Below, piece by piece: positions 17,392 to 64,000 of a stretch of DNA of 64,000 nt (the stretch's first letter is position 1; each line of letters starts with the position of its first letter). A program made the translations under genes and the position numbers. The DNA lies in assembly GCA_024277065.1 (NCBI GenBank), contig JAJRVY010000179.1, positions 7,645 to 71,644 on the forward strand, given 5' to 3'. The notes beneath the pieces were generated by a model. That model searched no databases. It worked only from the letters and a program-made list of their open reading frames with translations, and was not told where the DNA came from. Source of the stretch: Planctomycetota bacterium. Lineage in GTDB: Bacteria; Planctomycetota; JAJSAM01; JAJVHW01.

Positions 17392-17446
17392 CCTCTCCCC
17401 GGCGTGGCGGGGCAGCGACGACGTGGGTGATCGTCCGGTGGCAGCA

Positions 17447-17650
17447 TCACACGCCGTAACGGCGACGCGCGGAATCGAGGCGGCTGATCTGCGTGGACGA
17501 CGAACGCGTGTCGTGCTCCTTGCAGGTCAAGGTGCCGGGCTCGGTGGGCTTGCCGCACTGGCGGCCGGTGCGCTCGTCGTAGACCGGGCACGGGATCGCG
17601 TCGTCGCCGGCGTGCGCCCAGGGGTCTTCCTTGTCGTCTGTGCGGGCCAT
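17447..17650 (-). CDS. Possible small Cys-containing protein (about 67 aa; C-x10-C-x11-C-x2-H) upstream of the vWA gene.
   Basis: Short ORF beginning MARTDDKEDPW. No strong RBS. Low confidence. Confidence 0.25.
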   Translation of the reverse strand: MARTDDKEDPWAHAGDDAIPCPVYDERTGRQCGKPTEPGTLTCKEHDTRSSSTQISRLDSARRRYGV

Positions 17651-31645: not shown

Positions 31646-31864
31646 CAGAGCTGCTTCGTCCGAATCCGCGCGCAGCGTGCGCCAGACCTGCAGGGCGGCG
31701 CCCTCGTCGCGGCGCGGGCGGCGGGTCGGTCCCTGCGCGCCGGTCGCGCGGTTGACACGCTCCTCCGGATCGAGCTCGAGGTCGTACTCCTCGCTCCAGC
31801 TCAGGACGCCGATCGTGGACTCGATGCACTTGCGCGGCCAGCGGATCGAGCAGCGGCTCGCGAG

Positions 31865-32968: not shown

Positions 32969-33211
32969 CGCTCACAAGGGGAACCGCGGGCACCGGTCGC
33001 GGCCAGGATTCCGCGCCGCCGGGTCGCCCCGCGCGCCGCCGTCACGTCCCTCTGCGAGACCTCAACGAGAACCGCCCCGCGGTGGGCGACCGCGGGGCGA
33101 GATGTTGCCGAGGGAGCTGCGCATGGGAAGGGAAGGGAGGGGGAGGCGTCAGCTTTACGCGAGGTTCGCAACCCCGGCACCCTCTCCAACCGACTTCGAG
33201 CCGCTGCAATT

Positions 33212-42986: not shown

Positions 42987-43971
42987 CCTCGCCGCCGCCG
43001 GCCGCGTCGTCGCTCGTGCGCGCCTGCGCCTCGCCGTGCGGCGCGGTCTCGAGCTCGCGGCGGGTGGCGCCCTCGGCGGCGCTCTCGTCGCGATCGTCGC
43101 CGTGTGCGCGCTGCGGCTGAGCGGCGGCGGCGCCGTGCCCGCGCCGTGGATGCTCGTGCCGGTCGCCGGCGCCGTGCTGGGCCTCGGCGCCGGTTTCCTG
43201 CGGCCGCCCGCCGCCGCGCGCGCCGCGCTGGCCGTCGATCGCGCCGCGGGCACCGACGAGGCGTTCGTCTCGGCGCTCACCGCCGCCGACGCGGATCGCT
43301 CGTTCCGCGAACTCGCGGCGACCTGCGCCCTGCGTGGGCTGGGCACGCGTCCGCTCGCGCGTCTGTTGCCGTTCGGGATGCCGCGGCGCGCCGCGCCCGC
43401 CGCCGTCGCCCTGGCGCTGGTCGTGGCGCTCGCCGTACTCGGCCGGGACGCGCCGGGAACCGGGGCGGTGTCCGACCCGCCGCCTGCGTCCGCCGCGGTC
43501 ACGCTCACCGGCGCGAAGGGCGGCGCGGGGGCCGGGCCGTCCCGCGGGGCGGCCCGGGCCGCCTCCCGTGTGCCTGCTCCGTTGCCGGGCGTCGGCCCCG
43601 CCGCGGGGCCGTCGCCGGCCGTGCCGGCCGGCGGCCCGCCGCTGACCGACGCCGACGTGCGGCGCCTGGCCCGTGATCTCGCCGCTCGCGGCGTCGCCGC
43701 GGGTGCCGCCGCGCTCGAGGCGCTGCGGCGGGGCGACCGCGCCGCCGCCGAGGCTCTGCTGCGGGGCGCTCTCGCCGCGGAGAGCGTGGCGTCGCCGGTG
43801 GCCGCGGCGGGAGTCACAGCATCCGCCGGCAGGCGGCTCGCCGGGCGCGGTGCCCCCGGAGCGTGGTCGGTCGGCACGTGGCCGCTGCGGTACGATCGAG
43901 AGGTTCGCGCCTGGCTGCGTCGGCAAGCGGTGACGGACGGGGGCGGAGACGCCAGGACGGAGGCACGGTGA
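42979..43971 (+). CDS. Ala/Arg-rich hypothetical membrane protein
   Basis: Overlaps the upstream gene by 8 nt and the ino1 start by GTGA. Two predicted TM segments. Low complexity. Confidence 0.4.
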   Translation: MSDLAAAGRVVARARLRLAVRRGLELAAGGALGGALVAIVAVCALRLSGGGAVPAPWMLVPVAGAVLGLGAGFLRPPAAARAALAVDRAAGTDEAFVSALTAADADRSFRELAATCALRGLGTRPLARLLPFGMPRRAAPAAVALALVVALAVLGRDAPGTGAVSDPPPASAAVTLTGAKGGAGAGPSRGAARAASRVPAPLPGVGPAAGPSPAVPAGGPPLTDADVRRLARDLAARGVAAGAAALEALRRGDRAAAEALLRGALAAESVASPVAAAGVTASAGRRLAGRGAPGAWSVGTWPLRYDREVRAWLRRQAVTDGGGDARTEAR

Positions 43972-45218
43972 GGTCAGAGTTCGCAACGCCGGCGCCCGAT
44001 GATCATGTGCGTGAGCACATGGGTGAGCACACGGGTGAGCGCAAGACCGGTGAGCGCACGATCGCTGAGCGCAGGATCGGCGTCTGGATCGCCGGCGCCT
44101 ACGGCAATGTCGGCACGTGCGCCGTGGCCGGAGCCGCCGCAGTTGCCCGGGGCCTCATGCCCGCCGTCGGCCTCGTCACCGAGGCGCGCGACATCTGCGA
44201 CCTCGAACTCATCTCGCTCGGGGGCCTGGTGTTCGGCGGCCACGACGTCCGCGACGGCTCGATCGTGCGCACGGCGCGGGAGTTCGGAGAGCGCAACGGG
44301 CTCTTGACCCCGGCGCTGCGTCTCGCCGTCGCCGACGATCTCGAGCGCGCCGACCGCGAGATCCGACCCGGCCTGCTCGTCAACGCCGGCGACGAGGTGC
44401 GCGCGATGGCTGCCGAGGGCTTCGTCGTCACGGGGTCGCCGCGGGAGCTGCTCGCCCGTGTGCAGGCCGACCTGCGCGCGTTCCAGGCCCGCTGGGAACT
44501 CGACGACGTGATCGTCGTCAACCTGATCTCGACCGAGCCCGACGCCGGCGCCGCGCCCGCCCTGTCGTCGCACGAGGCGTTCTGCGCAGCCCTGGACGGC
44601 GGGGGCGATCACGACGAGCACGGCATCCCGGCCTCGGTGCTGTACGCCTACGCGGCTCTCGACGCCGGGTTCCCGTTCGTGGACTTCACGCCGGCCGTCG
44701 CGTGCTCCGTGGCCCCGATCCACGAGATCGCGCGACTTCGCGGCGTGCCGTTCATGGGGCGCGACGGCAAGACCGGCGAGACGCTGGTCAAGACCGTCCT
44801 CGCGCCGATGTTCGTGGCGCGTCACTTCCGCGTCCTCTCCTGGGAGGGCGCCAACCTGCTCGGCAACCGCGACGGCGCCGTGCTGCAGGGCTCCGGGGCG
44901 CTCGCCTCGAAGGTGCGCGACAAGGACGCGGCGCTGCGCCGCATCCTGCGCGACGACGACATGCACTCGAGCGTGCGCATCGACTACGTACCCTCCCTCG
45001 ACGACTGGAAACAGGCGTACGACTTCATCCACTTCGAGGGCTTCCTCGGGGCGCGGATGCAGATGCACTTCCTCTGGCAGGGCTGCGACTCGGCGCTCGC
45101 CGCGCCGCTCGTGCTGGACCTCGTGCGGCTCGTGGATCTCGCGCGCCGCCGCGGGGAGGTCGGCACGCTGCCGCATCTCGCGTGCTTCTTCAAGTCGCCC
45201 GTCGGCGTCGCCGAGTAG
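43968..45218 (+). CDS. ino1: myo-Inositol-1-phosphate synthase (inositol-3-phosphate synthase)
   Basis: Strong MIPS family similarity (GVWIAGAYGNVGT NAD-binding; SWEGANLLGNRDG; HLACFFKSP). GTG start preceded by GGAGG. Confidence 0.85.
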   Translation: MRSEFATPAPDDHVREHMGEHTGERKTGERTIAERRIGVWIAGAYGNVGTCAVAGAAAVARGLMPAVGLVTEARDICDLELISLGGLVFGGHDVRDGSIVRTAREFGERNGLLTPALRLAVADDLERADREIRPGLLVNAGDEVRAMAAEGFVVTGSPRELLARVQADLRAFQARWELDDVIVVNLISTEPDAGAAPALSSHEAFCAALDGGGDHDEHGIPASVLYAYAALDAGFPFVDFTPAVACSVAPIHEIARLRGVPFMGRDGKTGETLVKTVLAPMFVARHFRVLSWEGANLLGNRDGAVLQGSGALASKVRDKDAALRRILRDDDMHSSVRIDYVPSLDDWKQAYDFIHFEGFLGARMQMHFLWQGCDSALAAPLVLDLVRLVDLARRRGEVGTLPHLACFFKSPVGVAE

Positions 45219-45390
45219 GCGTTCGCCGCGCAGGTCGATCTGCTGCACCGCTACGCCGAGACGGTCCGCGCCGAGCGCGCGTCGTGCGCGAGCGACGCGG
45301 CGGCGGCGCGCAGCCGGCGACCCCGCCCGGCGTCGCGCACCTGAACACCTGAACGGCGCCGCGGGGGCCGATGGTAGGCTCGCACCGCCG

Positions 45391-46614
45391 ATGCGCATTC
45401 TCTACCTGTCCTGCCACCCACACCTGCGCACGGCCTCGAACGCGGGGTACTCGACGCACATCCGCGAGACGATCGCGGCGCTGCGCGGCCGTGGCCACGA
45501 CGTCGTGCCCTGGATCGCCGGCGACCGCGGGGCGGCGCCGGGCGCGCGCGTGGCCGAGCGCCCCCCCGCGGTCTCGTGGGCGCGGCGCGTCGTGCCCGGC
45601 TTCGCCTGGCAGGGGTTGCGGGACGCCGCTCTCGTGCGGCAGGACGTGATGCTCGACCCCGAGTTGCGCGGTGTGATCCGCCGCGTCAGCCCGGACGTCA
45701 TGTACGAGCGGGCGGCCTACCTGTCGGGGGCGGGCGTGCGTTGCGCGGAGCGCTCCGGGACGCCGCTCGTCCTGGAGGTGAACGCGCCGTACGTCGAGGA
45801 GCGCCGCAACCTGCACGGCGCGGGGATGATGGAGGCCGCGGGACGGCGCTGGGAGCGGCGCGTCGTGCGTGGGGCGGCGCTGGTCGTGGCCGTCTCGTCC
45901 GTTCTGGCCGACCGTCTCGCGGAGTCCGCCGGCGTGCGTCGGGACCGCGTGCGCGTGCAGCCCAACGGCGTGGACCTGGCGCGCTTCCATGCCGCGGCGC
46001 CGTCGGCGCGCGCGGAACTCGGGGTGCCGCCCGGCGCGTTCGTCGTCTGCTTCGTTGGTTCGTTCATCCGTTGGCACAGGCTCGACGTGCTGATCGAGGC
46101 CGTGGCCCGGCTGGCGCAACAGGGAATCCCCGTTCACGGCCTGCTGGTGGGGGACGGCGAGGTCCGCGACGAACTCGTGAGGCGGGCGGCCGAACTCGGC
46201 GTCGCGGATCGCGTCACGTTCACGGGCACCGTGCCGTTCGAGCGCGTCCCCGGCCTCGTGCAGGCGGCGGACGTCTGCGTCATTCCGGGGCACGCCTGGT
46301 ACTGCTCGCCGATCAAGCTGTTCGAGTACGGCGGCGTCGGCAAGGCCGTCGTCAGCCTGGACTCGGCGCCGGTTCGTGAGGTTGTGCGCGAGGACGCGGA
46401 GTGCGTATTCTTCGACGGCAGCGCCGACGATCTCGCCGCCGCGCTGCGCCGGCTGCATGCCGCGCCGGCGCAGCGCGCGGCGATGGGGCGGGCGCTGCAC
46501 GCCGCCGTGGCCGAGCGATTCACGTGGGACGCAGCCGCGTCGCGCATCTCCGGCTGGATGACCGACGTCGTCGGTGGAGCCTGCGCGCTGACCTGCCCCC
46601 CCGTGGACTCGTGA
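45391..46614 (+). CDS. GT4-family glycosyltransferase (MshA/PimA-like)
   Basis: GT-B fold signatures (LEVNAPY, FVGSFIRWH, EYGGVGKAVVS, E-x7-E region). Lies adjacent to ino1. Confidence 0.75.
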   Translation: MRILYLSCHPHLRTASNAGYSTHIRETIAALRGRGHDVVPWIAGDRGAAPGARVAERPPAVSWARRVVPGFAWQGLRDAALVRQDVMLDPELRGVIRRVSPDVMYERAAYLSGAGVRCAERSGTPLVLEVNAPYVEERRNLHGAGMMEAAGRRWERRVVRGAALVVAVSSVLADRLAESAGVRRDRVRVQPNGVDLARFHAAAPSARAELGVPPGAFVVCFVGSFIRWHRLDVLIEAVARLAQQGIPVHGLLVGDGEVRDELVRRAAELGVADRVTFTGTVPFERVPGLVQAADVCVIPGHAWYCSPIKLFEYGGVGKAVVSLDSAPVREVVREDAECVFFDGSADDLAAALRRLHAAPAQRAAMGRALHAAVAERFTWDAAASRISGWMTDVVGGACALTCPPVDS

Positions 46615-48237: not shown

Positions 48238-48981
48238 TCAGCCGTCCCACGGCAGATCAACGATCACGCCTCCGGCGCCCGTGGCCGCGTAGGCGTCGCG
48301 CCGCTCGGGAGCGACGCCCTCCACCCACACGAACGCTCCGCGCCGCCGCAGCAGGGGCACGAGACGGTCGCGCACCTCGTCCGGCGACGTGAGCGACGCG
48401 CGCACCACCAGATCGTCGGCGTCGGCGGCCGCCCGAGCGAGGTTCGGCAGGCGCCGCGCAAGGGCGCCGCGCCAGCCGCCGCCCTCACGCGGCAGCGAGC
48501 GCGCCGAGGGCAGTTCCCGCGCCGCCTCGCGCAGGCGCTTGCCGAGCTTGGCCGTGGCCACCACGACGAGGTAGCGCGCCCGCAGTGCCGCGACGCCGTC
48601 GCCGCCCATGATGCCGAGCGCCGCCGAGAGCGTGTGCGTGACGAGCGTGTCGTGGATGCGCAGGACCAGCCCGAGCCCGCGCCGGTTCGCGACGAGCATC
48701 GTCTCCTCGAGCGTGACGACGTGGCCGTCCACGGCGTGTGCCTTCCGTGCCTCGCTCAGCGTGAGTTCCTCGACGGGCCGCGCCTCGCCGCGCACCAGAG
48801 CGTGGTCGTGGGCGTGCACGACGGCCCAGCCGTCGGCCGTCGAGCGTGCGTGGACGACGACGCGGTCGAAGCCGGCATCCGCCGCGGCGCCGACCAGCGC
48901 GCGCCCGGACGGCGTGCCGCCGGGGCCGCAGGCCGCGATGTCGTACTCCGCGACGTGGACGGCGCGCTGCGGCGCGGTCAT
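48238..48981 (-). CDS. Glycerophosphodiester phosphodiesterase-like (GDPD family) protein
   Basis: VVHAHDHALVRGE...LTLSEARK resembles GDPD blocks. Moderate confidence. Confidence 0.45.
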   Translation of the reverse strand: MTAPQRAVHVAEYDIAACGPGGTPSGRALVGAAADAGFDRVVVHARSTADGWAVVHAHDHALVRGEARPVEELTLSEARKAHAVDGHVVTLEETMLVANRRGLGLVLRIHDTLVTHTLSAALGIMGGDGVAALRARYLVVVATAKLGKRLREAARELPSARSLPREGGGWRGALARRLPNLARAAADADDLVVRASLTSPDEVRDRLVPLLRRRGAFVWVEGVAPERRDAYAATGAGGVIVDLPWDG

Positions 48982-49823
48982 CGCGTCCTCCGCCCGGTGT
49001 GGGCGTCCACCTCGGCCAGGAACGGCTCGATGGCCGCGAGGCAGGGGCCGGGGTGCGAGACGAACGGCACGTGGCCGGCCGTGTCGAGGACGATCACGCG
49101 TGACGAGGGCAGCCGGGCCAGCGTCCGCGCCGCCCGCGGCGGCACGGCGCCGTCACGCCCGCCGTGGATGACGAGCGCCGGCTGCCGGATCTCCGCGAGC
49201 CGCGCGCGCACGTCGCCGTCGCGGCGCAGCGCGCCCACGAGACGCGTGCCGAAGGCCTTGGTGCGATGGGCCATCTGGCCGCGGAGGGCGTCGTTGACCG
49301 GGCTGCCGCCGGGAGGGTCGGACGACGACGGGATCAGGACACGCGGCAGAATGCGGTGGTACCAGCGGCGGGGCATGGCGTCGTGGAACACGGCGGCGCA
49401 GCGCGCCCAGCGACCCACGTCGCTCCAGGCGGCGAACGTGCCGAGGAGCAGCAGGCCCGCCACGCGCCCCGGATGCCGCAGCGCCGCGTGCAGCGCCAGC
49501 ATCCCGCCGAGCGATGCGCCGCCGAGGACGACCTTGCCGTCGCACCCGGCGCGAGCGGCGGCTTCCATCGCGAGGTCCGCGACGGCGCCGAGATCGCGGC
49601 CGCCCGGGAGCCGGTTCGGCGGGTTCCACAGCACCACGCGTCGCGCGTCGGCCAGGGGCGCGAGGAACGAGAACGAGCGCCCGTCGAGCCCGAACCCCGG
49701 GAGCAGGAACAGCGGTGTCGCCGCGCCGTGGGCGCCCTCGGGCTCGTACACGCTGACCGTCGTCTCCGCGACCGGGTCGCGTCCCGCGGGCAGGGTAAGG
49801 AGGCGCAGGCCGTCGCCGAGCAT
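48978..49823 (-). CDS. Alpha/beta-fold hydrolase
   Basis: GASLGG nucleophile elbow. Begins MLGDGL. Its stop overlaps the downstream gene start (ATGA). Confidence 0.7.
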   Translation of the reverse strand: MLGDGLRLLTLPAGRDPVAETTVSVYEPEGAHGAATPLFLLPGFGLDGRSFSFLAPLADARRVVLWNPPNRLPGGRDLGAVADLAMEAAARAGCDGKVVLGGASLGGMLALHAALRHPGRVAGLLLLGTFAAWSDVGRWARCAAVFHDAMPRRWYHRILPRVLIPSSSDPPGGSPVNDALRGQMAHRTKAFGTRLVGALRRDGDVRARLAEIRQPALVIHGGRDGAVPPRAARTLARLPSSRVIVLDTAGHVPFVSHPGPCLAAIEPFLAEVDAHTGRRTR

Positions 49824-49874
49824 CGCCGGGAGGATACGGCGCGGAGGCGGCGGCTCCTCGGTATCGTCCGCCCT

Positions 49875-53921
<4,047 letters not shown>

Positions 53922-54119: not shown

Positions 54120-54845
54120 CTACACCGCCTCGCTCGCCCTCGGTCCCAGGAACTCATTTCTGCGCGAACCCTGAGTTGCGGCCGTCCCGCGGAGGGTGCG
54201 GGCGGTGGCCGTGGGATCGGGGGCGCCGAGCACGGCGGCGCAGACCGCGATGCGTGTGAAGCCTGCCGCGGCCACGGCTCGCGCGCGATCGACGTCGATG
54301 CCGCCGATGGCGAAGGCCGGCACGCCGGCGGCCTCCGCCCGTGCGGCGAGGGGCGCCAGCCCGGCGGGGGAGCCGACGGGCACGGCGCGGCCCTTCGTAG
54401 CCGTGGCGTACACGCTGCCGACGCCGACGTAGTCCGCCCCGGCGGCGAGCGTGCGGTCCAGTTCCGCCGCGTCGTGTGTGGAGACGCCGACGAGCGCGTG
54501 CGGTCCGAGCGCTCGGCGCGCCGAGGCGACGCTCGCGTCGCCTTGCCCGACGTGTACGCCGTCGCAGTCCACACCCGCGGCGACGTCCAAACGGTCGTTG
54601 ACGATGAACAGTGCTCCGTGCGCGCGGCAGAGGGCGCCGACGACCGCCGCCCGCTCGAGGAGCGCCGCGGCGCAGAGCGACTTCTCGCGGAGTTGCACGA
54701 CGTCCACGCCGCCCGCGAGTGCGTGCTCCGTCGCCGCCAGCCAGTCGCCGCGCGCCGCCGCCGCGGTCACGAGCAGATAGAGGTGCGCGTCGCGCAATCG
54801 CGCTCTGCGTCGTCGTCGCTCCGTCGTGAAGGTCGCGTCGCACAT
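54120..54845 (-). CDS. thiE: Thiamine-phosphate synthase
   Basis: TMP-TENI family blocks (VVQLREK, FIVNDRLDVA, GVHVGQGD, IGGI). Confidence 0.8.
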   Translation of the reverse strand: MCDATFTTERRRRRARLRDAHLYLLVTAAAARGDWLAATEHALAGGVDVVQLREKSLCAAALLERAAVVGALCRAHGALFIVNDRLDVAAGVDCDGVHVGQGDASVASARRALGPHALVGVSTHDAAELDRTLAAGADYVGVGSVYATATKGRAVPVGSPAGLAPLAARAEAAGVPAFAIGGIDVDRARAVAAAGFTRIAVCAAVLGAPDPTATARTLRGTAATQGSRRNEFLGPRASEAV

Positions 54846-54932: not shown

Positions 54933-55838
54933 ATGCATCCCCGACGCCACGCCCTCGCCACGCTCCTGCTCGCTGCCGCCGCCGCGGCCGCCGCGGCGGA
55001 CGACGTGCATCTCACGAACGGCAACACGCTCGAGGGTCACGCGCGCCGCGTCGGCAACGAGGTCGTCGTCGTGACGGCGGCCGGAGAACTGCGGCTGCCG
55101 GCCTCCGAAGTGCGCGAGATCGTGCCCGGCAAGACCCGCCGTGATCGCTACGTCGAGCGCCTCCGCGCCCTCGAGAAGAGCGCGCGTGCCACCGACGCCG
55201 ACGCCTACGTCGAGCTGGGGGACTGGTGCGCCGCGCAGCGCCTCCGCGCCGAGGCCGGCCGGGCGTTCCGGCGCGCGCTCGAGCTGGACGCCGACCATCG
55301 CGCGGCTCACGTACGCCTCGGCCACGTGCGTCATGAGGGGCGCTGGCTGACCGAGGCGCAGTACTACGAGGCACGCGGCTTCGTCCGGGACGGCGGCGCG
55401 TGGGTGCACCGCGACGAGCTCGCACGACGCCGGGCGAGGGTGGCGCGAGAGAAGGCGCTGCGCACGCACCGCGACACGATCCGGTCCTGCGTGCGGCGCA
55501 TGCAGTCGCAGAGGCGCAAGGAACGCCAGCTCGCCAAGGTCGAACTGCAGGAGTACGCCGAGAGCATCGGCGACCTGCGCCTGGCCTCGTTCGCCTCCGA
55601 CGTCGCCGACGGCTACAACGCGCAGTGGCGCGTCATCCGGCAGCAGCTCGCGCGCGGCACGGCCCTGACCGAGATCCGCGCCACGCAGGCCACGCTGAAG
55701 CGTCCGATCCCGGTCTTCACGACGAGCCTGGGCGCCAACTCGACCCCCGTGCGCATCCAGCTCCCCGAGCTGGCCATCACGTCGATCCGCACGACGGTCC
55801 TGGTGCCGCTGGACATCGAACTCGACGAAGACGACTGA
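54933..55838 (+). CDS. Secreted hypothetical protein
   Basis: Signal peptide (ALATLLLAAAAAAAAA). 301 aa with no confident family match. Confidence 0.45.
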   Translation: MHPRRHALATLLLAAAAAAAAADDVHLTNGNTLEGHARRVGNEVVVVTAAGELRLPASEVREIVPGKTRRDRYVERLRALEKSARATDADAYVELGDWCAAQRLRAEAGRAFRRALELDADHRAAHVRLGHVRHEGRWLTEAQYYEARGFVRDGGAWVHRDELARRRARVAREKALRTHRDTIRSCVRRMQSQRRKERQLAKVELQEYAESIGDLRLASFASDVADGYNAQWRVIRQQLARGTALTEIRATQATLKRPIPVFTTSLGANSTPVRIQLPELAITSIRTTVLVPLDIELDEDD

Positions 55839-55918: not shown

Positions 55919-57340
55919 ATGTTGTTCAACACGCCCGAGTTCGCCGTCTTCCTCGCAGTGGTGTTCTGCGTCTACCACTGTCTGCGAACGCGTGCGCAGA
56001 ACGTGCTCCTGCTCGTCGCGAGCTACGTGTTCTACGGATGGTGGGACTGGCGCTTCTGCTCGCTGCTCGCGCTCTCGACGATCGTGGACTTCGTCGTCGC
56101 GCGGTCCATCGAGGGCAGCAGCGACGCGCGGCGCCGGCGGCGGCTGCTGCTCGTCAGCCTCTCCGCCAACCTCGGGATGCTCGGCATCTTCAAGTACCTC
56201 GACTTCTTCACGGGCAGCGCCGTCCACCTGCTCGAGGCGCTCGGCTTCCACCCCGACCTGCCGACGCTCGGCATCGTGCTGCCGGTCGGCATCAGCTTCT
56301 ACACCTTCCAGACGATGGCCTACACGATCGACGTCTACCGGCGTCGCATGCGCGCCACGCGCGATCCGATCGCCTTCGGCGTCTACGTGGCCTACTTCCC
56401 GCAGCTCGTGGCGGGGCCCATCGAGCGCGCGCAGCGGCTGCTCCCGCAGATCACGCGGCGGCGTCGCGTGGACGCCGCCGCGTTGTCGTCCGGGGTGCTG
56501 CTCTTCACGATCGGACTCGTGCGCAAGGTCGTCATCGCGGACGGCGTCGCGCCGATCGTCGATGAGGTCTTCGCCGACCCCGGCGCGCACACGGCATCAC
56601 GCGTGGCGCTCGGTGTGTTCTTCTTCGGGCTCCAGATCTACGGCGACTTCGCCGGCTACTCCGACATGGCCCGCGGCGTGAGCCGGCTGCTCGGCATCGA
56701 ACTGGTCGAGAACTTTCAGCACCCCTACGTCGCGACCAACATCACGGACTTCTGGAGACGCTGGCACGTCTCGCTCTCGCAGTGGCTGCGGGACTACCTC
56801 TACATTCCGCTCGGCGGCAACCGCGGTTCGCCGCTCGCCACGTATCGCAATCTGTTCCTCACGATGTTCCTCGGCGGGCTGTGGCACGGCGCCTCCTGGA
56901 CGTTCGTCGTCTGGGGCTCGGCGCACGGGCTCGCGCTGGCGCTCCACAAGCTCGTCGTGGGGCGCGGCCGCGCGCGCTCGGCCGACCTGGCGCAGGGCGC
57001 CGCGGGACGCGCCGTGCGGCTCTGCAACTGGGCGTTCACCATGGCCTTCGTGTGGCTGGCCTGGGTGTTCTTCCGCGCGCCCGACTTCGACGGTGCGCGC
57101 ACCGTGCTCGCCGCGTGCGTGAACGGTGCACCCGGGGGCTCGGCGCTCGAGCTCTCGCACGCGGCCTTCTACGTCGCCGTACTCGCTCTGATCGACGTAC
57201 CCCAGATCCTCGGGCGCGATCACTGCGCCGTGCTGCGCTGGCCCGCCGTTGCACGGGGCGCGCTCTACACTCTCTGGCTGATCCTCATTGTCGGTGCCTG
57301 GTCCTCCGATGCCTCACCCTTCATCTACTTCCAGTTCTGA
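55919..57340 (+). CDS. MBOAT-family membrane-bound O-acyltransferase (AlgI/DltB-like)
   Basis: Multi-TM protein with MBOAT signature blocks (FWRRWHVSLSQWLRDYLYIPLGGNRG). Confidence 0.85.
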   Translation: MLFNTPEFAVFLAVVFCVYHCLRTRAQNVLLLVASYVFYGWWDWRFCSLLALSTIVDFVVARSIEGSSDARRRRRLLLVSLSANLGMLGIFKYLDFFTGSAVHLLEALGFHPDLPTLGIVLPVGISFYTFQTMAYTIDVYRRRMRATRDPIAFGVYVAYFPQLVAGPIERAQRLLPQITRRRRVDAAALSSGVLLFTIGLVRKVVIADGVAPIVDEVFADPGAHTASRVALGVFFFGLQIYGDFAGYSDMARGVSRLLGIELVENFQHPYVATNITDFWRRWHVSLSQWLRDYLYIPLGGNRGSPLATYRNLFLTMFLGGLWHGASWTFVVWGSAHGLALALHKLVVGRGRARSADLAQGAAGRAVRLCNWAFTMAFVWLAWVFFRAPDFDGARTVLAACVNGAPGGSALELSHAAFYVAVLALIDVPQILGRDHCAVLRWPAVARGALYTLWLILIVGAWSSDASPFIYFQF

Positions 57341-58403
57341 GCGGCGCTCCCTCTCCCTCGCCGGCTCCCTGACCGGACTGCGTCCCTGGGGCGTGCTCTG
57401 GATGGTCGCCTTCCTCCTCGCCGGCGAGCTGTTCGTGGCGCGCTCGGAGTGGTTCTGGACCTGGCCCGAGAGGTCGCGCAGCGGGGCGTTCCGCGTGCTC
57501 GAGCGCCGCGTGATGGCGCGGCGCCCGAACCCCGTGGTGGCTATCGTCGGCAGCAGCCGGTTGCGCGACGCGCTGGCGCCCGCGGCTCTCGAGGACGAGT
57601 TGGGACTGCCGCGCGGTGCGGTCGCAAACCTGTCTCTGACGTCCGGTAGCCCGCTCGATGAGCGCGCGCTCTTGCAGCGCAATGGCGTGTGGTTCTCGCG
57701 CGCGTCCGTACTCGTCGTCGGCGTGGAGGACTGGTACTTCGTGAACGCCTACGCACCGCACGAGCGGGAACGGCGCTTCGCGACGTGGCCGGAGCAGGAG
57801 GCCGGCTGGGCCGGACGCGGCGATCTGCCGCGCGCTCTCCTCGAGCACTGCGTGTGGTCGTTCGGCGCCGCGCGGCGGCTGGGCGATCTCGTGCGCGCGG
57901 GGCCGCGACCGCTGGTGCGCCCCTTGCGGCTGGACGGCGACGACCGCCTGACGTGGCGGCGCGCCAAGGTCGCCGAGGGGCCACCGTCCGTGCCCGTGGG
58001 CGCCGCCGTGCGGCGTTACTACGGCGCTGTCGGCGACCACGCTGCCGGCGAGGTCCGTGGACCGAGTTTCCGCGAGGCGGCGCTGCGGGACGTGGTGCGT
58101 GCTGGGCGCGCTGCCGGACTGCGCGTCGTCTTCGTGCAGGTGCCGTGGCGTGAGGAGTACGTGGACGGGGTGGAGGGTGGCCACGCCGCGGCGTGGCGGA
58201 CGTACCACGATCGCCTGGCGGCCCTCGCCGGCCGCCTGGACGTGCCGCTCATCGCGGCGGACCGCGGGTCCGAGAGCGGTCTGCGGAGGACGGACTTCGT
58301 CGATTACGGCCACATGACCGAGGCCGCCGGCGCACGCTACGCGGCCTGGCTCGCGGCGCGCCTGCGTGCGATCGGCGTCGTCGCCGGGCGCGATGGGCGC
58401 TGA
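57309..58403 (+). CDS. MBOAT partner protein (AlgJ/AlgX/DltD-like acyl-transfer accessory; SGNH-like)
   Basis: Lies immediately downstream of, and overlapping, the MBOAT gene. N-terminal TM. Family assignment rests on gene context plus weak similarity. Confidence 0.45.
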   Translation: MPHPSSTSSSERRSLSLAGSLTGLRPWGVLWMVAFLLAGELFVARSEWFWTWPERSRSGAFRVLERRVMARRPNPVVAIVGSSRLRDALAPAALEDELGLPRGAVANLSLTSGSPLDERALLQRNGVWFSRASVLVVGVEDWYFVNAYAPHERERRFATWPEQEAGWAGRGDLPRALLEHCVWSFGAARRLGDLVRAGPRPLVRPLRLDGDDRLTWRRAKVAEGPPSVPVGAAVRRYYGAVGDHAAGEVRGPSFREAALRDVVRAGRAAGLRVVFVQVPWREEYVDGVEGGHAAAWRTYHDRLAALAGRLDVPLIAADRGSESGLRRTDFVDYGHMTEAAGARYAAWLAARLRAIGVVAGRDGR

Positions 58404-58739
58404 GGAGCGGCGGCTGCGCGGCGGCCACGCATCTCGTGCGTGGCTGTCAGCCTGACAGCGCGGCGCCCGCCGATGCCCGAGACTGCCATTCTGGCACCTG
58501 CGGGTCTACTCGCCTGCGTTGCCGTAAGTCGTTTTGCTCTTGGGTCTTAGGGCCTGGGCGCGAGGCCGCCCCGCGTTGGTATCGCCATTGCTCCGCTGTG
58601 CCCACACCACCGCGTGGATCGATCCGCGTCGTGGGGTGGAGGGAGTTGCGACTCCCCCCGCCGAGGGAAGCCCGAGGGCGGCAACAACAGGTAAGTTGCG
58701 CGGCGCGGACGAGCCGCGGCGCGAGGAGACCCAGCATCA

Positions 58740-59050
58740 TGGCGAAGCCCAGCAAGAAGACCACCATCCGGCCCATCAACGACAAGGTGCTCGTGAAGCG
58801 CCTCGAGGCCGAGAGCAAGACGGCGGGCGGCATCGTCCTTCCGGACAACGCCAAGGAGAAGCCCAAGGAGGGCACGGTCGTCGCCGTCGGCAACGGCCGG
58901 CTCCTGAAGAGCGGTGAGCGCGCCGCGTTCCAGGTCGCGGCCGGCGACCGCGTCATCTTCAGCTCCTACGCCGGCACCGAGATCAAGGTGCAGGGCGAGG
59001 AGTTCCTGATCCTGGCCGAGGACGACGTCCTCGCCATCATCGCGGGCTAG
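58740..59050 (+). CDS. groES: Co-chaperonin GroES
   Basis: [35 protein letters not shown]. Confidence 0.92.
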
Positions 59051-59102
59051 TGGTCGCCCCGACCCTCCCTCCACAGAGACTCCAGAAGGAAGGCAGGCAA
59101 CG

Positions 59103-60794
59103 ATGAGTGCGAAGAAGATCGCCTACGACCAGGAAGCGCGCGAGAACACGCGCCGCGGCGTCAAGGCCCTGGCCCGCGCCGTGAAGGTCACCCTCGGTCC
59201 CCGCGGCCGCAACGTCCTGATCGAGGAGAGCTTCGGCGCCCCGCAGGTCACCAAGGACGGTGCCACGGTGGCGAAGGAGGTCGATCTCAAGGATCGCTAC
59301 GAGAACATCGGTGCGATCATGGTCCGCGAGGTCGCGACCAAGACGGCCGACGTCGCCGGCGACGGCACGACGACGGCCGTCGTGCTGGCCGAGGCGATCT
59401 TCGAAGAGGGGCTCAAGAACGTCGCCGCCGGCGCCTCGCCCCTCGGGATCAAGAAAGGCATCGAGCTGGCCGTCGATCGCGTGACTGAGCAGCTCGGCAA
59501 GGCGTCGATCAAGGTCCGCGCCGACGCCGAGGAGCAGATCGCGCAGATCGCCGCCGTCGCCGCCAACAACGACCTCGACATCGGTCGCAAGATCGCCGAG
59601 GCGATCACCAAGGTCGGCAGCAACGGTGTGGTCACGATCGAGGAAGGGCGCGGCATCGCGACCGACGTCGAGTGGAAGGAGGGCATGCAGTTCGACAAGG
59701 GCTGGCTCTCGCCGCACTTCGTCAACAAGCCGGAGGGCATGGAGTGCGTGCTCGAGAACGCGTTCGTGCTCGTCCACGAGAAGAAGATCTCCTCGATCAA
59801 GGACATGCTCCCCTTGCTCGAGAAGCTGGCCAAGGCTGGCAAGCCGCTGCTGATCCTCGCCGAGGACGTCGAGGGCGAGGCCCTCGCGACGCTCGTCGTC
59901 AACCGTCTGCGCGGTACGCTCGACGTGTGCGCCGTCAAGGCGCCCGGCTTCGGGGACCGCCGCAAGGCCATGATGCAGGACATCGCCGTCCTGACGGGCG
60001 GCACGGCCCTCTTCGAGGATCTCGGCGTCAAGCTCGAGAACGTCGAGGTGAAGGATCTCGGGACCGCCAAGAAAGTCATCATCACCAAGGACGACACGAC
60101 GATCGTCGAGGGTGGCGGGACGAGGAAGGACATCGCCGCGCGGGGCGAGCAGATCCGGCGCGAGCTCGAGGACACCAAGAGCGACTACGACCGTGAGAAG
60201 CTCCAGGAGCGCCTCGCGAAGCTCGCCGGCGGCGTCGCTCAGATCAACGTCGGGGCGGCGACCGAGGTCGAGATGAAGGAGAAGAAGATGCGCGTCGAGG
60301 ACGCGCGCGACGCCACGTTCGCCGCGCTGGAGGAGGGCATCCTCGCCGGCGGCGGCACGGCGCTCCTGCGGGCGCGGTCCGCGCTCTCCGGCATGGAGAA
60401 CGACGAGGAGTACGCCGACGAGGTCAAGGTCGGCATCGCCATCGTCCGCCGCGCCCTCGAGGCACCGATCCGCCAGATCGCGGAGAATGCGGGCGTGGAC
60501 GGTTCGATCGTCGTGGACAGGGTCTGCGCCGGGAAGAAGACCTTCGGCTTCAATGCGGCCACCGAGACCTACGGCGACCTCGTGGAGATGGGCGTCATCG
60601 ATCCTCGCAAGGTCGTGCGCGTGGCGCTCCAGAACGCCGCGTGGGTCGCCCCCTTGCTGCTGACCACCGAGGCCGTCATCACCGAGATCCCCGAGAAGAA
60701 GCCCGCGATGCCCGCCGGTGGTGGCGGCGACATGGGCGGCATGGGCGGCGGCATGGGCGGAATGGGCGGCATGGGCGGAATGGGCGGCTTCTGA
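59103..60794 (+). CDS. groEL: Chaperonin GroEL
   Basis: Full-length Hsp60 with a C-terminal GGM repeat tail. Confidence 0.95.
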
Positions 60795-60854
60795 GAGGCG
60801 ACGTCCGTCCGAGGTACTGCGGGCGTTGCGCCCGGGCTCCTCCTCAAACCAGGT

Positions 60855-60892
60855 AGGTCCAAGACATCGGGGCGCCGTGCGGCGCCCCGATG
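60855..60892 (+). terminator. Rho-independent terminator of groESL (CATCGGGGCGCC-GTGC-GGCGCCCCGATG followed by TTCGTGTTGT)
   Basis: Perfect 12-bp stem plus T-rich tail. Confidence 0.6.
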
Positions 60893-60904
60893 TTCGTGTT
60901 GTAG

Positions 60905-61930
60905 GTGGACCGTCCATCGTGTACGTATCGGAGAGTCGGGGCCCCGTGCATGCGGCGTTCCGCGCCCGTTACGATCGAATGCATTCCGGGAGGCGCTGTG
61001 CCGGACGGAGTCCCGACCTCCGATTCACATGCCCCGTGCGTTGCCTGCGCGGGGCCGACTCGCGAACTCGGCACGCGGGGTGACTATCTCTACGTGTCCT
61101 GCCGTCGTTGCGGCACGGCGCAGCTCGATCCGATGCCCACGGCGGACGAGCTGGCTCATGCGTACGAGCATGACTACGCGACGTCGGGGCACTACGACGG
61201 CTCTCCGACGGCGGTCGCGCGGCTCGCGGCGCCCCTCTACCGCGCCGTGGGTGACCTCGTCCAGACGACGCCCCGGCCGGCCGGGACGGTGCTGGACGTT
61301 GGTTGCGGATGGGGCGGTTTCCTGTCGGTGCTCCGTGATGCGGGAGTGCCCGCCGAGGGCGTCGATTTCCCCTCCGCCACACTCGCCCACTGCATCTCCC
61401 TCGGCCACACGGTGCGCGAGATCACGCGTCTCGGAGAGGCGCTCGAACGTCGCTATGCGGCGCTGACGCTGATCACGGTCTTCGAGCACCTGGCGGACCA
61501 TCGCGCGACGCTGCGCGAGCTCGCGGGCTGGCTCGTTCCCGGCGGGATCATGGTGATCCTGACGCCCACGTCGTCCGTGTTCTCGCGGGTCGCGGCGGCC
61601 GTTCGGACGGTGCGCGGCGGGCGCGAGATCCCCGCCGTCAACACGACGTTCTGCCCACCCTGGCACACTGTCATCCCCTCCGTGGCCGGCGCACGCCTCA
61701 TGATCGCAGACGCCGGACTCGAGGTGTGCGACGTCCGTCCGTCCCCCTGCACCGTCGGCACCGGCGTCGTGCGCGTCGCTCAAGTCGGCGCCGAGCTGGT
61801 CGCACGCGCGGGGTTCGCGGTCCTCGGCGAGCGCTGGCCCCTGGTGTTGAACCACATCATCGTCTGTCGTGTCCCGGAGCCGGTCGAGGGTGCGGGGAGG
61901 GTGGGGGACTCTGCCAGGATGCACACGTGA
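60905..61930 (+). CDS. Class I SAM-dependent methyltransferase with an N-terminal zinc-ribbon (C-x2-C ... C-x2-C)
   Basis: VLDVGCGWGGF motif I and CVACAG...CRRCG zinc ribbon. The start codon is uncertain, with several in-frame Met. Confidence 0.6.
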   Translation: MDRPSCTYRRVGAPCMRRSAPVTIECIPGGAVPDGVPTSDSHAPCVACAGPTRELGTRGDYLYVSCRRCGTAQLDPMPTADELAHAYEHDYATSGHYDGSPTAVARLAAPLYRAVGDLVQTTPRPAGTVLDVGCGWGGFLSVLRDAGVPAEGVDFPSATLAHCISLGHTVREITRLGEALERRYAALTLITVFEHLADHRATLRELAGWLVPGGIMVILTPTSSVFSRVAAAVRTVRGGREIPAVNTTFCPPWHTVIPSVAGARLMIADAGLEVCDVRPSPCTVGTGVVRVAQVGAELVARAGFAVLGERWPLVLNHIIVCRVPEPVEGAGRVGDSARMHT

Positions 61931-63000
61931 CGGACGCCCGCGACGGGATCGGCGCGCCGACGCTCGTCTGTGGCTTCCCGAAGTCGGGGACGACGCTCGT
62001 GGCGGCGCTGCTGGACGGGCACCCGGATCTGCTGTGCTTCCCGGAGGAGACCTGGGCGCTCAAGGTGGCCTCGCGCTTCCCTCACGCGGACTGGCTCGAT
62101 CACATCCTCGCCTCGGAAGGCGTGCGGCGGCTCGGGCAGGGCGTCGCCGACGGCCCCGACGGGCCGCGGGACTTCACGGGCTTTGACTTCGCGCGTTTCG
62201 AGAGCGAGGCCGCTCGGCGTTGGGCGGCATCCGACGGCTCGCCGCGCTCTCTGATGGAGAGCGTGGTCGGCGCGTTCGGGTGTGCGCTCGGCCGTGGGGG
62301 CGTCGTGCGCTGGGTGGAGAAGAGCCCCGAGCATGAGTTGCAGCTCGCGCGTCACGCTGCCGACTGGCCGGATCTGCGCGTCGTTCACGTCGTGCGCGAT
62401 CCGCGCGCCGTGCTGTGCTCCTTCCGTCGCAAGCGCGCGCGTCACGAGCAGAGGATCTACGTGGACGGGCTCGCCGCGCGCTGGAGGGCGGGGATCGCCG
62501 CCGTGGTCGCGCACGAGGAGCGGAATCCTGGCGCGGTCACGATCGTGCGCTACGAGGACGTCGTGCGGGAACACCGCGCGACGTTGACGCGCATCCTCGA
62601 CGCGCTCGGCTGCGCCTGGGACGCCGCCGTCGAGACGCCGACGCTGCTCGGCCGCCCGTGGCGGGGCAACTCGATGTACGCCGCGCAGATCGAGGGCATC
62701 TCCGCGGCGTCGGTCGAGCGCTGGCAGGGCGAGATCGACGCGGACGAGCGCGCCGTGATCGAGGCTTGCCTCCACGACGAACTGGCCGCGCTCGGGTACT
62801 GCGATGACGACGGCGGCCCGCGGCGTGGCGCCCGGTCGAGCGCCGTACGCGTCGTGCTGCGACATCGCGCCGGTCCGGGCGCGCGCCTGCGGTCCCTGCT
62901 GCGCCTGCGGGGGCTTCGTCGCGCGAAGCCGGCGCCGGTCGCGAGCGAAGCCTTTCGGCGGGCGTCGTCCTCAGTCGCGCAGCATCCACTCATGCGTTGA
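61927..63000 (+). CDS. Sulfotransferase-family protein (PAPS-binding P-loop GFPKSGTT)
   Basis: 5'-PSB motif PKSGTT and a 3'-PB-like region (RDPRAV). GTG start overlaps the methyltransferase stop (GTGA). Confidence 0.65.
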   Translation: MTDARDGIGAPTLVCGFPKSGTTLVAALLDGHPDLLCFPEETWALKVASRFPHADWLDHILASEGVRRLGQGVADGPDGPRDFTGFDFARFESEAARRWAASDGSPRSLMESVVGAFGCALGRGGVVRWVEKSPEHELQLARHAADWPDLRVVHVVRDPRAVLCSFRRKRARHEQRIYVDGLAARWRAGIAAVVAHEERNPGAVTIVRYEDVVREHRATLTRILDALGCAWDAAVETPTLLGRPWRGNSMYAAQIEGISAASVERWQGEIDADERAVIEACLHDELAALGYCDDDGGPRRGARSSAVRVVLRHRAGPGARLRSLLRLRGLRRAKPAPVASEAFRRASSSVAQHPLMR

Positions 63001-63834
63001 GCCGTCGAGGGCGGCGGCTACGTCGTCGTAGTTCTCGAGCAGCGCCTCGACGGAGTGCGGGTGCAGGCGTCGCGTGTGCGGGCGGGCGGGCGTCGGCGCG
63101 ATGCCGAGGAACGTGCAGACGCGCTCGTAGCCACGCTGTGGGCCGGCGTCGGCGATGTCCTCCTCGAACGTGAGATCGAGCACCCGCCTGCCCGCGAGCA
63201 GCGACGCGAGCTGCGCGTAGCTCCGCTCGATCTGGTCGAGGCAGGTGACGAGACTCTGCGGCTCGGCGCGCCTCGCAAAGCGGATGGCATCCACGCGCAG
63301 CCGAACGCGCTCCGGGGCTGCTTGCGCGCCACCTGACGGGGCGTGGCGCCGGCCGCTGCGCGTCCCCGCCTCGGCCGAGATCATGCGCCGCAGCGCGTTT
63401 CTGCGGCGCAGCACGATGTGGTGTGTGACCCCCGCACGCTCGATCTCGGCGACGCACTCCTCCAGCGGGCGCGCGACGATGGCGACGTGCTGCTGCGCGA
63501 GGAACTTCATCTCGAAGCCGTACCAGCGCCGCCCGGCGCACCACATGCGGCGTCGTAGGAAGCCCTCCGAGTCCCACGGCTCGAAGCGTCGCTCGCCCTG
63601 CGTGAAGTGGTGGAAGTAGATCTCGCGGTCCCATCTGACCGCGCGGTGCTGATTCAGCATCTCGCCCAGGACCGAACTCCCGCAGCGTCCGATGTGATAC
63701 AGGCACACGGCGCCGGGGCGCAGCGGCGAGAGGGGCCATCCGAGAAACTGGTCCACGCCGCGCGCGACGCCGCGCAGCCGGTTCGTCCAGCGGTGGGGGA
63801 GTCGTGAGCCGACGGCGTGGCGGAGCGAGCCCAT
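62971..63834 (-). CDS. Stf0-like sulfotransferase
   Basis: N-terminal YHIGRCGSSVLGEML P-loop, typical of the Stf0 / PF09037 family. Confidence 0.55.
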   Translation of the reverse strand: MGSLRHAVGSRLPHRWTNRLRGVARGVDQFLGWPLSPLRPGAVCLYHIGRCGSSVLGEMLNQHRAVRWDREIYFHHFTQGERRFEPWDSEGFLRRRMWCAGRRWYGFEMKFLAQQHVAIVARPLEECVAEIERAGVTHHIVLRRRNALRRMISAEAGTRSGRRHAPSGGAQAAPERVRLRVDAIRFARRAEPQSLVTCLDQIERSYAQLASLLAGRRVLDLTFEEDIADAGPQRGYERVCTFLGIAPTPARPHTRRLHPHSVEALLENYDDVAAALDGSTHEWMLRD

Positions 63835-63930: not shown

Positions 63931-64000
63931 ATGGAGGCCCGCACCGACGTGACCGAGAGCGACGCACCAGGACGGCGGCCGACCGGCCGAGCCGTGGCCG
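63931..64000 (+). CDS. Possible 5' end of a gene running off the window
   Basis: ATG preceded by GAGGAGG. Only 23 codons are visible. Confidence 0.25.
   Translation, partial: MEARTDVTESDAPGRRPTGRAVA

Follow-up and report, generated by a model that had tools for sequence, protein, structure and literature searches.

Two probable envelope-glycan tailoring modules on either side of groESL in a Planctomycetota genome

Introduction

Do the envelope-type enzymes encoded around groESL in this uncultured Planctomycetota bacterium serve one pathway, or have separate systems come to lie side by side? The window, by which we mean the whole 64-kb stretch of DNA that was analysed, carries an MBOAT O-acyltransferase and a partner gene upstream of groESL and, downstream of it, a methyltransferase and two sulfotransferases, ST1 and ST2 (Table 1). 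The original prediction had them all contribute to one product, a glycan or glycolipid bearing sulfate, methyl and acyl groups. What was observed are the gene calls, the folds and motifs of the products, and patterns of synteny and domain fusion; the donor molecules, the action in the cytoplasm, the glycan acceptor and the further course of the island are inferred. Our explanation is that two independent envelope-glycan tailoring modules probably flank a housekeeping groESL.

Table 1. Features of the locus, in window coordinates
Feature	Coordinates	Strand	Length	Evidence and remarks
MBOAT O-acyltransferase	55919..57340	+	473 aa	PF03062 E 3e-29; WHG histidine; C-terminal FIYFQF
Membrane-anchored SGNH-fold partner	57309..58403	+	364 aa	Overlaps MBOAT 3′ end by 32 nt
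groES and groEL	58739..60794	+		groES 58739-59050, groEL 59103-60794; ORFs and translation
Class I SAM methyltransferase	60998..61930	+		N-terminal CxxC-x17-CxxC zinc-ribbon-like motif; Methyltransf_23 E 1.2e-15
ST1, PAPS-type sulfotransferase	61927..63000	+	357 aa	Sulfotransfer_3 E 9.5e-27; Sulfotransfer_1 E 1e-8
ST2, divergent NodH/Stf0-like sulfotransferase	62971..63834	-	287 aa	Fold and NodH-like profile; convergent with ST1
ORF 5′ end	63931..64000	+		Divergent from ST2, runs off window; ATG after GGAGG, frame open to window end
Sulfatase-fold gene	31865-32971		368 aa	Pfam Sulfatase E 4e-29; N-terminus MPPNLLLVIVD

Results

Gene calls and junctions

All five envelope-type genes of the MBOAT-to-ST2 stretch are real, and the outer coordinates originally given, 55919 and 63834, both match. 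GC at third codon positions is 0.83-0.92 for the frames called and 0.54 for those that compete with them. ST1 and ST2 are convergent, with 3′ ends that overlap by 30 nt, and a pairwise comparison (E 0.85) finds them without similarity; they therefore belong to different families, as had been predicted for this adjoining pair. At the GTGA junction, ST1 begins with a GTG (61927-61929) that overlaps the TGA with which the methyltransferase ends (61928-61930). This overlap, too, had been described correctly, but the special coupling read into it does not follow: the genome has many 4-nt start/stop overlaps, so this one alone is weak evidence for such coupling. The notion of a fusion-like coupling was rejected because such overlaps are common both in this genome and in its relatives. 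The methyltransferase itself probably starts at GTG 60998, after GGGAGG, and not at 60905, though the start is uncertain; the alternatives are ATG 60950 and GTG 60905, and the coding signal in GC3 sets in near 61050.

From one perspective, these genes could be neighbours by accident, with no shared or envelope role, and some of them might be relics, now in decay, of a variable island. Gene content between and beyond groEL differs in every genome compared, promoter and terminator scans of the cluster gave background levels only with no structure detected, and the frequent occurrence of 4-nt overlaps points the same way. Such an accident is nevertheless improbable, since all the ORFs are intact with a strong codon-position GC bias, the catalytic motifs are conserved, and both the ST1/ST2 convergence and the MBOAT/SGNH overlap are retained at 45-82% protein identity. 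No Rfam family was found between 53 and 64 kb.

The acyltransferase pair

The MBOAT translation contains GGLWHGASW, with the conserved histidine of the domain, and the protein ends in ...SPFIYFQF-stop. This ending fits FxYxxF, the C-terminal acyl-Tyr shuttle motif of PatA-type MBOATs (PMC12148441). Similarity to DltB is evident in PDB chains (E 6e-26), and the DltB-like model TIGR04091 scores 165 bits, under its 375-bit cut-off. Neither DltA, DltC nor DltX is encoded beside the MBOAT gene, whose neighbours are an unannotated protein and groES, which argues that the pair is of the acyl-CoA type. A further difference from the Dlt (D-alanylation) system is that the MBOAT carries FxYxxF on its own chain, which is the arrangement of non-Dlt systems.

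The original prediction paired this enzyme with an acyltransferase partner, and fold matches, DltD, PatB and OatA among them, bear this out by identifying the partner as an SGNH protein. Its start is most likely ATG 57309 rather than TTG 57288. A Ser-His-Asp triad is present: G-S-S, Asp331 and His334 (numbered on the translation of window:57312-58403) are invariant. The predicted model has an N-terminal helix and, at residues ~140-240, a helical insertion of ~100 residues with lower pLDDT. About 10 homologues came from a word-indexed search, and the SGNH model was built on only 10 sequences. The order MBOAT-then-partner is kept at every homologue locus, with overlaps of 29-32 nt in L005-L007 and L010; by tblastn, the pair was found only in L005-L010. 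An N-terminal SSTSSSE in the partner was considered as a functional motif and rejected, being an alternative-frame reading of the MBOAT FIYFQF-stop.

In its catalytic-type histidine (WHG) and terminal FxYxxF, the MBOAT resembles those of PatA/PatB, AlgI/AlgJ-AlgX, WssH/WssI and DltB/DltD, and the overlapping downstream gene for a membrane-anchored SGNH protein with Ser, Asp and His is a further likeness to PatA/PatB and other such pairs. Unlike PatB, AlgJ and DltD, however, the partner matches no sequence model in Pfam, NCBIfam or the PDB and carries the helical insertion; the likeness seen is one of fold. The pair probably acts as a relay of the PatA/PatB type, the system of peptidoglycan O-acetylation. 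On the cytoplasmic side, the MBOAT would accept an acyl group from acyl-CoA, most probably an acetyl, and load it onto the tyrosine of its C-terminal hexapeptide; the SGNH protein would receive the group on the serine of its triad and then esterify an extracytoplasmic polysaccharide, either peptidoglycan or an exopolysaccharide.

The methyltransferase and sulfotransferases

In the methyltransferase, C-V-A-C...C-R-R-C is read just upstream of the Methyltransf_23 domain, and weak PDB matches (E about 2e-3 to 9e-3) are to sugar O- and N-methyltransferases. ST1 is a clear Sulfotransfer_3 member (95.1 bits, cut-off 27), sharing PKSGTT and RDPxxxxxS with NoeE, RaxST/TPST and the CurM/OLS domains; its 5′-PSB loop FPKSGTT and 3′-PB VRDPRAVLCS align to TPST2. 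It differs from NoeE and TPST in a basic C-terminal tail of ~55 residues. Against the equivalog model of NoeE, the enzyme of Nod-factor fucose sulfation, it scores 38 bits (cut-off 500), and no nod genes were found within the window.

ST2 is the more divergent. It adopts the sulfotransferase fold and matches a NodH-like profile, with PSB Arg and PB Ser both conserved. The PSB loop reads H-I-G-R-C-G-S-S (Arg-x-Gly type) and the PB motif RRNALRRMIS; E71, E108, K110 and H164 are invariant, and a basic N-terminal helix of ~40 residues and a C-terminal HEWML motif are conserved. Yet Sulfotransfer_3 (PF13469) gives 24.1 bits, under the cut-off of 27, and PF09037 (Stf0) gives no match, with only 2 of 19 family members matching it (best E 6e-8). 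The Stf0-like label originally attached to ST2 thus stands for the fold and the two residues and falls for the profile. Identity to NodH (“LPS sulfotransferase NodH”, COG4424-type) and to Stf0 is 13-16%, and the setting differs from both, consisting of glycan islands and glycosyltransferase or Wzt fusions, not Nod-factor or sulfolipid-1 genes. Mycobacterial Stf0 is a trehalose 2-sulfotransferase (PDB 1tex) that initiates the synthesis of sulfolipid-1. The context of ST2 is one of glycan genes, and none of the pks2/papA/mmpL8 type was seen there.

For a time, ST2 looked like a tiny orphan family. That idea was rejected, as the 19 matches were a word-indexing artefact and a full HMMER search found thousands of cluster representatives (about 630 at E<=1e-30). 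Several groups of bacteria, the PVC bacteria among them, are moreover reported to have sulfotransferase genes and to produce sulfated exopolymers (PMC9723792, PMC7356697, PMC11625862). Both points speak against the initial premise that sulfated metabolites are rare in bacteria. Among the best 150 representatives, all eight proteins longer than 400 aa have the ST2 domain at or after (P0102) other domains, namely GT2 (six proteins), a GT1/GT28-like transferase (one) and Wzt plus Wzt_C (one). Distant homologues stand alone among housekeeping genes.

What do these enzymes sulfate? Among solved structures, ST1 is closest to TPST2 and TPST1 (E 2e-10, ~25% identity over parts of the protein), and the top Foldseek match of ST2 is TPST2, so the substrate of ST1, and possibly that of ST2, might be tyrosine residues in a secreted peptide or protein, as it is for RaxST and TPST. 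We regard this as most improbable: no gene for a RaxX-like peptide, a peptidase-ABC exporter or type I secretion lies nearby, the orthologues neighbour PIG-L, glycosyltransferase and DegT genes, the ST2 family is fused to glycosyltransferases and Wzt, and Sulfotransfer_3 also holds the sugar sulfotransferases NodH and NoeE (PMC11625862). Tailoring of a small secondary metabolite or lipid by the methyltransferase and sulfotransferases, in the manner of the CurM/OLS domains or StaL and Teg14 (the latter two being glycopeptide sulfotransferases), is highly improbable as well. It would account for the structure and sequence matches to the olefin-synthase sulfotransferase 4gox, CurM, StaL and Teg14, and one ST2 homologue (P0010, 43% identity) does lie near P450, ATP-grasp, FkbO-like, KS and AMP-ligase genes; against it, no PKS, NRPS or terpene genes occur in or near the cluster, and the close orthologues (55-67% identity) are all in glycan-gene contexts. 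On the sequences, the best reading is thus a glycan or envelope target, and here the original prediction gains from the GT2, GT1 and Wzt fusions and from the ST1 orthologues beside PIG-L, GT2, PMT_2 and DegT genes.

Relatives and a probable glycan island

Three Planctomycetota contigs (L001, L002 and L017) were compared as syntenic relatives, their groEL being 83-85% identical to that of the window. After groEL, ST2 is kept in 3/3 and ST1 in two, L001 and L017, both with the convergent pair. By tblastn, ST1/ST2 were found only in L001, L002, L011 and L017, with ST2 also in L018. ST1 orthologues are 66% identical in L011, 63% in L017 and 46% in L001, and share their operons with a PIG-L deacetylase and further sulfotransferases, GT2/PMT_2/DegT genes lying alongside. 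The operon partner varies: in the window it is the methyltransferase, in L017 the orthologue is 4-nt-coupled to a PIG-L gene and another sulfotransferase, and in L011 it is 4-nt-coupled to a gene that is not a methyltransferase. The fragment upstream of the L011 orthologue has no Pfam match; by analogy with the L017 arrangement alone, it is suggested to be PIG-L.

Beyond ST2, L001 and L017 run on into PMT_2, GT2, DegT, formyl- or acetyl-transferase and WbqC genes, and L002 into NeuB/NeuC-like genes. In L001 and L017, the position divergent from ST2 is taken by an ArnT-like PMT_2 glycosyltransferase, the window gene there being a 5′ end only. No acceptor, glycosyltransferase or exporter (wzm/wzt included) for either module was found inside the 64-kb window. 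Since two relatives continue into GT2/ArnT-like/DegT genes, the island probably extends past the window end. In the favoured two-module explanation, the methyltransferase, ST1 and ST2 would probably form the edge, on the groEL side, of a hypervariable glycan island. These three proteins, none with a signal peptide, would act in the cytoplasm. With SAM as the donor for O-methylation and PAPS for sulfation, they would modify sugars of a glycan that is still linked to a nucleotide or lipid and not yet exported. The island would continue with GT2, an ArnT-like GT-C (PMT_2), DegT, a formyl-/acetyl-transferase, PIG-L and further sulfotransferases, judging from the relatives.

Could all five genes nonetheless form one pathway, whose single product would be an envelope glycan or glycolipid that carries sulfate, methyl and O-acyl groups? 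They do lie within 8 kb, and envelope-glycan action is plausible for both modules. Moreover, the 10-kb contig L005 joins an MBOAT-SGNH pair to a Sulfotransfer_3+GT1 pair 5 kb away, an ABC exporter and a PEP-CTERM protein, and for this reason some functional link between acylation and sulfation may exist. The relatives argue otherwise. L001, L002 and L017 keep ST2, and two of them ST1, with neither the MBOAT pair nor the methyltransferase, which is paired with ST1 only in the window; conversely, the L010 MBOAT pair sits among signalling genes with no sulfotransferase. Hence a single pathway is not supported; the original prediction of one joint product gives way at this point, and we consider it unlikely. 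Between the two groups, moreover, stands groESL with its own upstream region, a gap of 335 bp before groES (start 58739) that leaves room for groESL's own promoter; no CIRCE operator was found there. In the two-module explanation, groESL are housekeeping genes that separate the modules and lie outside the glycan function.

Discussion

The cluster genes are recognisable enzyme types, and their role is most likely the decoration of cell-surface sugars. Among the closest known systems are O-antigen and capsule loci that depend on an ABC transporter and carry uncharacterised sulfotransferase and ArnT-like genes. In the wb cluster of Aeromonas salmonicida, the order is Wzt - sulfotransferase-domain protein - WbbB ... 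GT2 - ArnT-domain protein (PMC4483657), and the co-occurrence of a sulfotransferase with GT2 and an ArnT-like GT-C recurs in L001 and L017. No sulfate was found in the Aeromonas O-antigen. The likeness extends to a distant locus, L012, where Sulfotransfer_3 and Methyltransf_23 genes lie beside Wzm/Wzt(+Wzt_C)/GT2, and to the Wzt-fused ST2 member; the window differs in having no exporter within its 64 kb.

A more specific product is conceivable and, in our view, quite unlikely: ST1 and ST2, with the ArnT-like GT-C/GT2/DegT island of the relatives, would make a sulfated (here also methylated) lipid-linked sugar that is flipped and attached periplasmically to lipid A/core, peptidoglycan or protein. 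If true, this would be a sulfated envelope glycoconjugate undescribed in Planctomycetota. Within this reading, the fusion of Wzt to ST2 in the wider family hints at a sulfate that caps the chain end and could be recognised by the exporter, by analogy with WbdD systems, in which the caps are methyl or phosphomethyl groups. As for the enzymes themselves, the ST2-type family falls largely below Pfam thresholds, and surveys that count PF13469 or PF00685 will undercount sulfation potential; similarly, neither Pfam nor NCBIfam has a profile for the SGNH subfamily of the MBOAT partner. Both points leave the understanding of these enzyme classes as it was.

Planctomycetota are known mainly for degrading sulfated algal polysaccharides via many sulfatases. 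Two sulfotransferases fixed inside a variable glycan island suggest that this lineage also makes sulfated surface glycans; if so, effects on surface charge, on phage and grazing resistance, and on sulfur and carbon cycling would follow. PAPS genes (cysC/N/D, cysQ) were not found by Pfam in the window ORFs scanned or the remaining gaps. The sulfatase-family gene at 31865-32971, initially counted as part of the system, was rejected as a member on motif, signal peptide and separation. Formylglycine (type I) sulfatases have a C/S-x-P-x-R active site and are usually secreted; this product reads T-L-P-A-C there, lacks a signal peptide and, by its sequence, fits better as a putative Thr-nucleophile enzyme of the alkaline-phosphatase superfamily. 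The 24 kb between it and the cluster hold ClpB, a kinase, ino1, purF, queA and ligA. LigA and the next gene overlap by 4 nt (53001-53004), as the methyltransferase and ST1 also do.

Gene organization around groESL

Because the GC content of the window is about 72%, it carries numerous spurious ORFs, and the true frames were picked by codon-position GC. The gene coordinates in the original prediction proved correct for this cluster, and the GTGA stop/start overlap described there between the methyltransferase and the first sulfotransferase, ST1, is present in the sequence. ST1 and the second sulfotransferase, ST2, share a 30-nt overlap at their 3′ ends, and no pairwise similarity between them is detectable. 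On balance, these genes probably make up two modules: an MBOAT with its SGNH-fold partner, for acyl transfer (module A), and the methyltransferase with ST1 and ST2, for glycan methylation and sulfation (module B). Each component is a known kind of enzyme; the new points are two sulfotransferases whose place in a Planctomycetota glycan island is fixed, an SGNH partner subfamily that has no profile of any kind, and a large family of NodH/Stf0-like sulfotransferases missed at Pfam thresholds.

Genes between 50.9 and 64.0 kb of the window
Gene	Position	Strand	Remark
ligA	50965-53004		
unannotated gene	53001-53921		
thiE	54120-54845	minus	
unannotated gene	~54990-55838		
MBOAT	55919-57340		
MBOAT partner	57309-58403		
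groES	58739-59050		
groEL	59103-60794		
methyltransferase	~60998-61930		
ST1 sulfotransferase	61927-63000		
ST2 sulfotransferase	62971-63834	minus	convergent with ST1
partial ORF leaving the window	63931-64000	plus	first 70 nt; ATG directly after GGAGG

A variable glycan island after groEL

Three related Planctomycetota contigs, L001/L004 (316 kb), L002/L003 (MAG Dive100_bin1.14) and L017 (a "PLA2" MAG), have in common the order ligA, hypothetical gene, thiE, hypothetical gene, groES, groEL, and in all three a group of glycan genes that varies from contig to contig comes after groEL. An ST2 orthologue (55-67% identity) is present in each relative, and an ST1 orthologue convergent to ST2 in two of them, L001 and L017. 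Past ST2, these two contigs encode a divergent PMT_2 protein (ArnT-like GT-C), a GT2, a DegT aminotransferase, a formyl- or acetyl-transferase, WbqC, further PMT_2/GT genes and further sulfotransferases; L002 has NeuB/NeuC-like genes there. Thus, from the synteny of the relatives, the post-groEL region is a hypervariable glycan island with ST2, usually together with ST1, as its fixed edge. The island is cut by the window end at 64000, and since the gene divergent from ST2 in the relatives is an ArnT-like PMT_2, it probably continues beyond. A sulfated periplasmic glycoconjugate made by an ArnT-like route, or sulfate used across the wider ST2 family to cap chains for export or termination, is a decidedly unlikely outcome in our estimation.

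Module A: the MBOAT and its SGNH partner

The MBOAT matches PF03062 in Pfam (E 3e-29) and DltB structures (E 6e-26), scores far under the DltB equivalog cut-off, and ends in FIYFQF, which fits the FxYxxF hexapeptide. In PatA the tyrosine of this hexapeptide is auto-acetylated and the acetyl group is then passed to the SGNH protein PatB (PMC12148441). The MBOAT and its partner therefore show those defining features of acyl-CoA-type MBOAT-SGNH O-acyltransferases that motifs and fold can reveal. The motifs and the fold are present in module A; by analogy with PatAB, the histidine site of the MBOAT would load the FIYFQF tyrosine from an acyl-CoA, probably acetyl-CoA, and the acyl group would be taken by the SGNH serine and then moved to an extracytoplasmic polysaccharide. 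An N-terminal SSTSSSE in the partner (window 57309-57345), kept in 9 of 10 aligned homologues, was rejected as a motif of the partner itself: it is an alternative frame of the FIYFQF-stop of the MBOAT, and it is conserved because the same stretch encodes that end.

The original prediction placed all of these genes in one pathway for a sulfated, methylated and acylated glycan or glycolipid. Elsewhere, the MBOAT pair lies 5 kb from a Sulfotransfer_3 and GT1 pair (locus L005), precedes groES in the same order as in the window (L008), or stands alone among signaling genes (L010), and it is absent from the three syntenic relatives L001, L002 and L017. The pair is a mobile module of two genes in its own right, inserted ahead of groES, and a single pathway is unlikely.

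Module B: the methyltransferase and the sulfotransferases

The methyltransferase is a class I enzyme (Methyltransf_23, E 1.2e-15) with a CxxC-x17-CxxC motif upstream of the domain; sugar O- and N-methyltransferases are among its weak matches of solved structure. Like the MBOAT pair, it is absent from L001, L002 and L017. ST1 clearly belongs to Sulfotransfer_3 (95 bits) and carries the PAPS-binding motifs PKSGTT and RDPxxxxxS. Its upstream partners differ among orthologues: in L011 (66% identity) the GTGA overlap is with a gene other than a methyltransferase, in L017 (63%) ST1 closes an operon whose genes overlap by 4 nt, after a sulfotransferase gene and PIG-L, and in L001 (46%) it is solitary. 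Hence the methyltransferase-ST1 coupling is one variant of several. Overlaps of 4 nt are frequent in the source genome, for example between ligA and the following gene. That the genes of the cluster are functionally unrelated is quite improbable.

ST2 reaches none of the Pfam cut-offs (24 bits against Sulfotransfer_3), and it gave no match to the Stf0 profile of Pfam or, in a single-sequence search, to the PDB. In the family alignment, the invariant features are H-x-G-R-[CS]-G-S, an Arg-x-Gly PSB loop of the type described for Stf0 and NodH (PMC11625862); E71, E108 and K110; L-x-R-x-N-x-L(R)...S153, the PB helix with its terminal Ser; H164; E224-x-D226 inside a YEDDI-like motif; and W283-M284 of a C-terminal HEWML-like motif. 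An initial search returned 19 matches, and the idea that the family is rare was dropped when HMMER, run exhaustively, retrieved 8,551 cluster representatives with E<=1e-3, 629 of which reach E<=1e-30. Among the top 150 representatives, all 8 proteins longer than 400 aa are fusions that place the ST2 domain behind its partner: GT2 in 6, a GT1/GT28-like transferase in 1, and in 1 (P0049, 680 aa) Wzt plus Wzt_C, an ABC-exporter ATPase with a carbohydrate-binding domain. P0049 suggests that some bacteria couple sulfation to the export of glycans, and the fusions are the strongest evidence that the ST2 family would sulfate glycans during assembly. A distant 30% GC metagenome contig (L012:1-7834) encodes in a row a Wza-like SLBB protein, Wzz, Wzm, a methyltransferase, Wzt+Wzt_C, Sulfotransfer_3, GT2 and Methyltransf_23, a complete-looking ABC-transporter polysaccharide locus with methyl and sulfate tailoring genes beside a cap-reading exporter.

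Two other substrates were weighed. Tyrosylprotein sulfotransferases are the best solved relatives of ST1, whose NoeE match is weak; peptide tyrosine sulfation is highly improbable. A 43%-identical ST2 homologue sits between a cytochrome P450/ATP-grasp pair and msrA (L018:1-13064), with FkbO-like, AMP-ligase and ketosynthase genes further along, so that small-molecule tailoring may be the role of some members of the family; for the genes of the window, such a role is very unlikely. From the fusions and the synteny we infer instead that module B would work on the cytoplasmic side of the membrane, methylating and sulfating a sugar or oligosaccharide linked to a nucleotide or polyprenyl carrier, and that genes further along the island would encode the machinery that then exports or transfers the modified glycan. 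No signal peptide is present in the methyltransferase, ST1 or ST2 when their sequences are read directly. No PAPS-synthesis genes were seen among the window ORFs scanned, a result that speaks neither for nor against activity. The argument that bacterial sulfation is rare does not hold, as the literature describes sulfotransferases and sulfated exopolymers for a number of bacterial groups, PVC relatives included (PMC9723792, PMC7356697, PMC11625862). An Aeromonas O-antigen locus, too, already contains uncharacterized sulfotransferase and ArnT-like genes (PMC4483657).

Other genes in the window

The product of 31865-32971, earlier counted as a sulfatase of the system, has the alkaline-phosphatase/sulfatase fold but shows T-L-P-A-C at the position of the C/S-x-P-x-R that formylglycine sulfatases require, and it lacks a signal peptide; about 23 kb of unrelated genes lie between it and the cluster. 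With zero intergenic bases it abuts a gene whose product faintly matches Glyco_tranf_2_5 (30794-32971, minus, for the two), and the pair appears to combine a cytoplasmic Thr-nucleophile alkaline-phosphatase-superfamily enzyme with a glycosyltransferase-like protein. On the plus strand, a myo-inositol-1-phosphate synthase gene (43677-45218) is directly followed by a GT4 glycosyltransferase (45298-46614); the two (43677-46614) may together make an inositol glycoside or a glycolipid, or else a compatible solute. The QueA frame (49104-50921, plus) runs 605 codons from stop to stop, with the Queuosine_synth domain covering residues 261-604 only; the long stretch N-terminal to the domain overlaps a minus-strand ORF (48238-49152) and probably does not encode protein. 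The minus strand also encodes two very large proteins with HEAT repeats, one of about 1,185 aa (8311-11865) and one of about 990 aa (14554-17526) with a VWA domain at its C-terminus.
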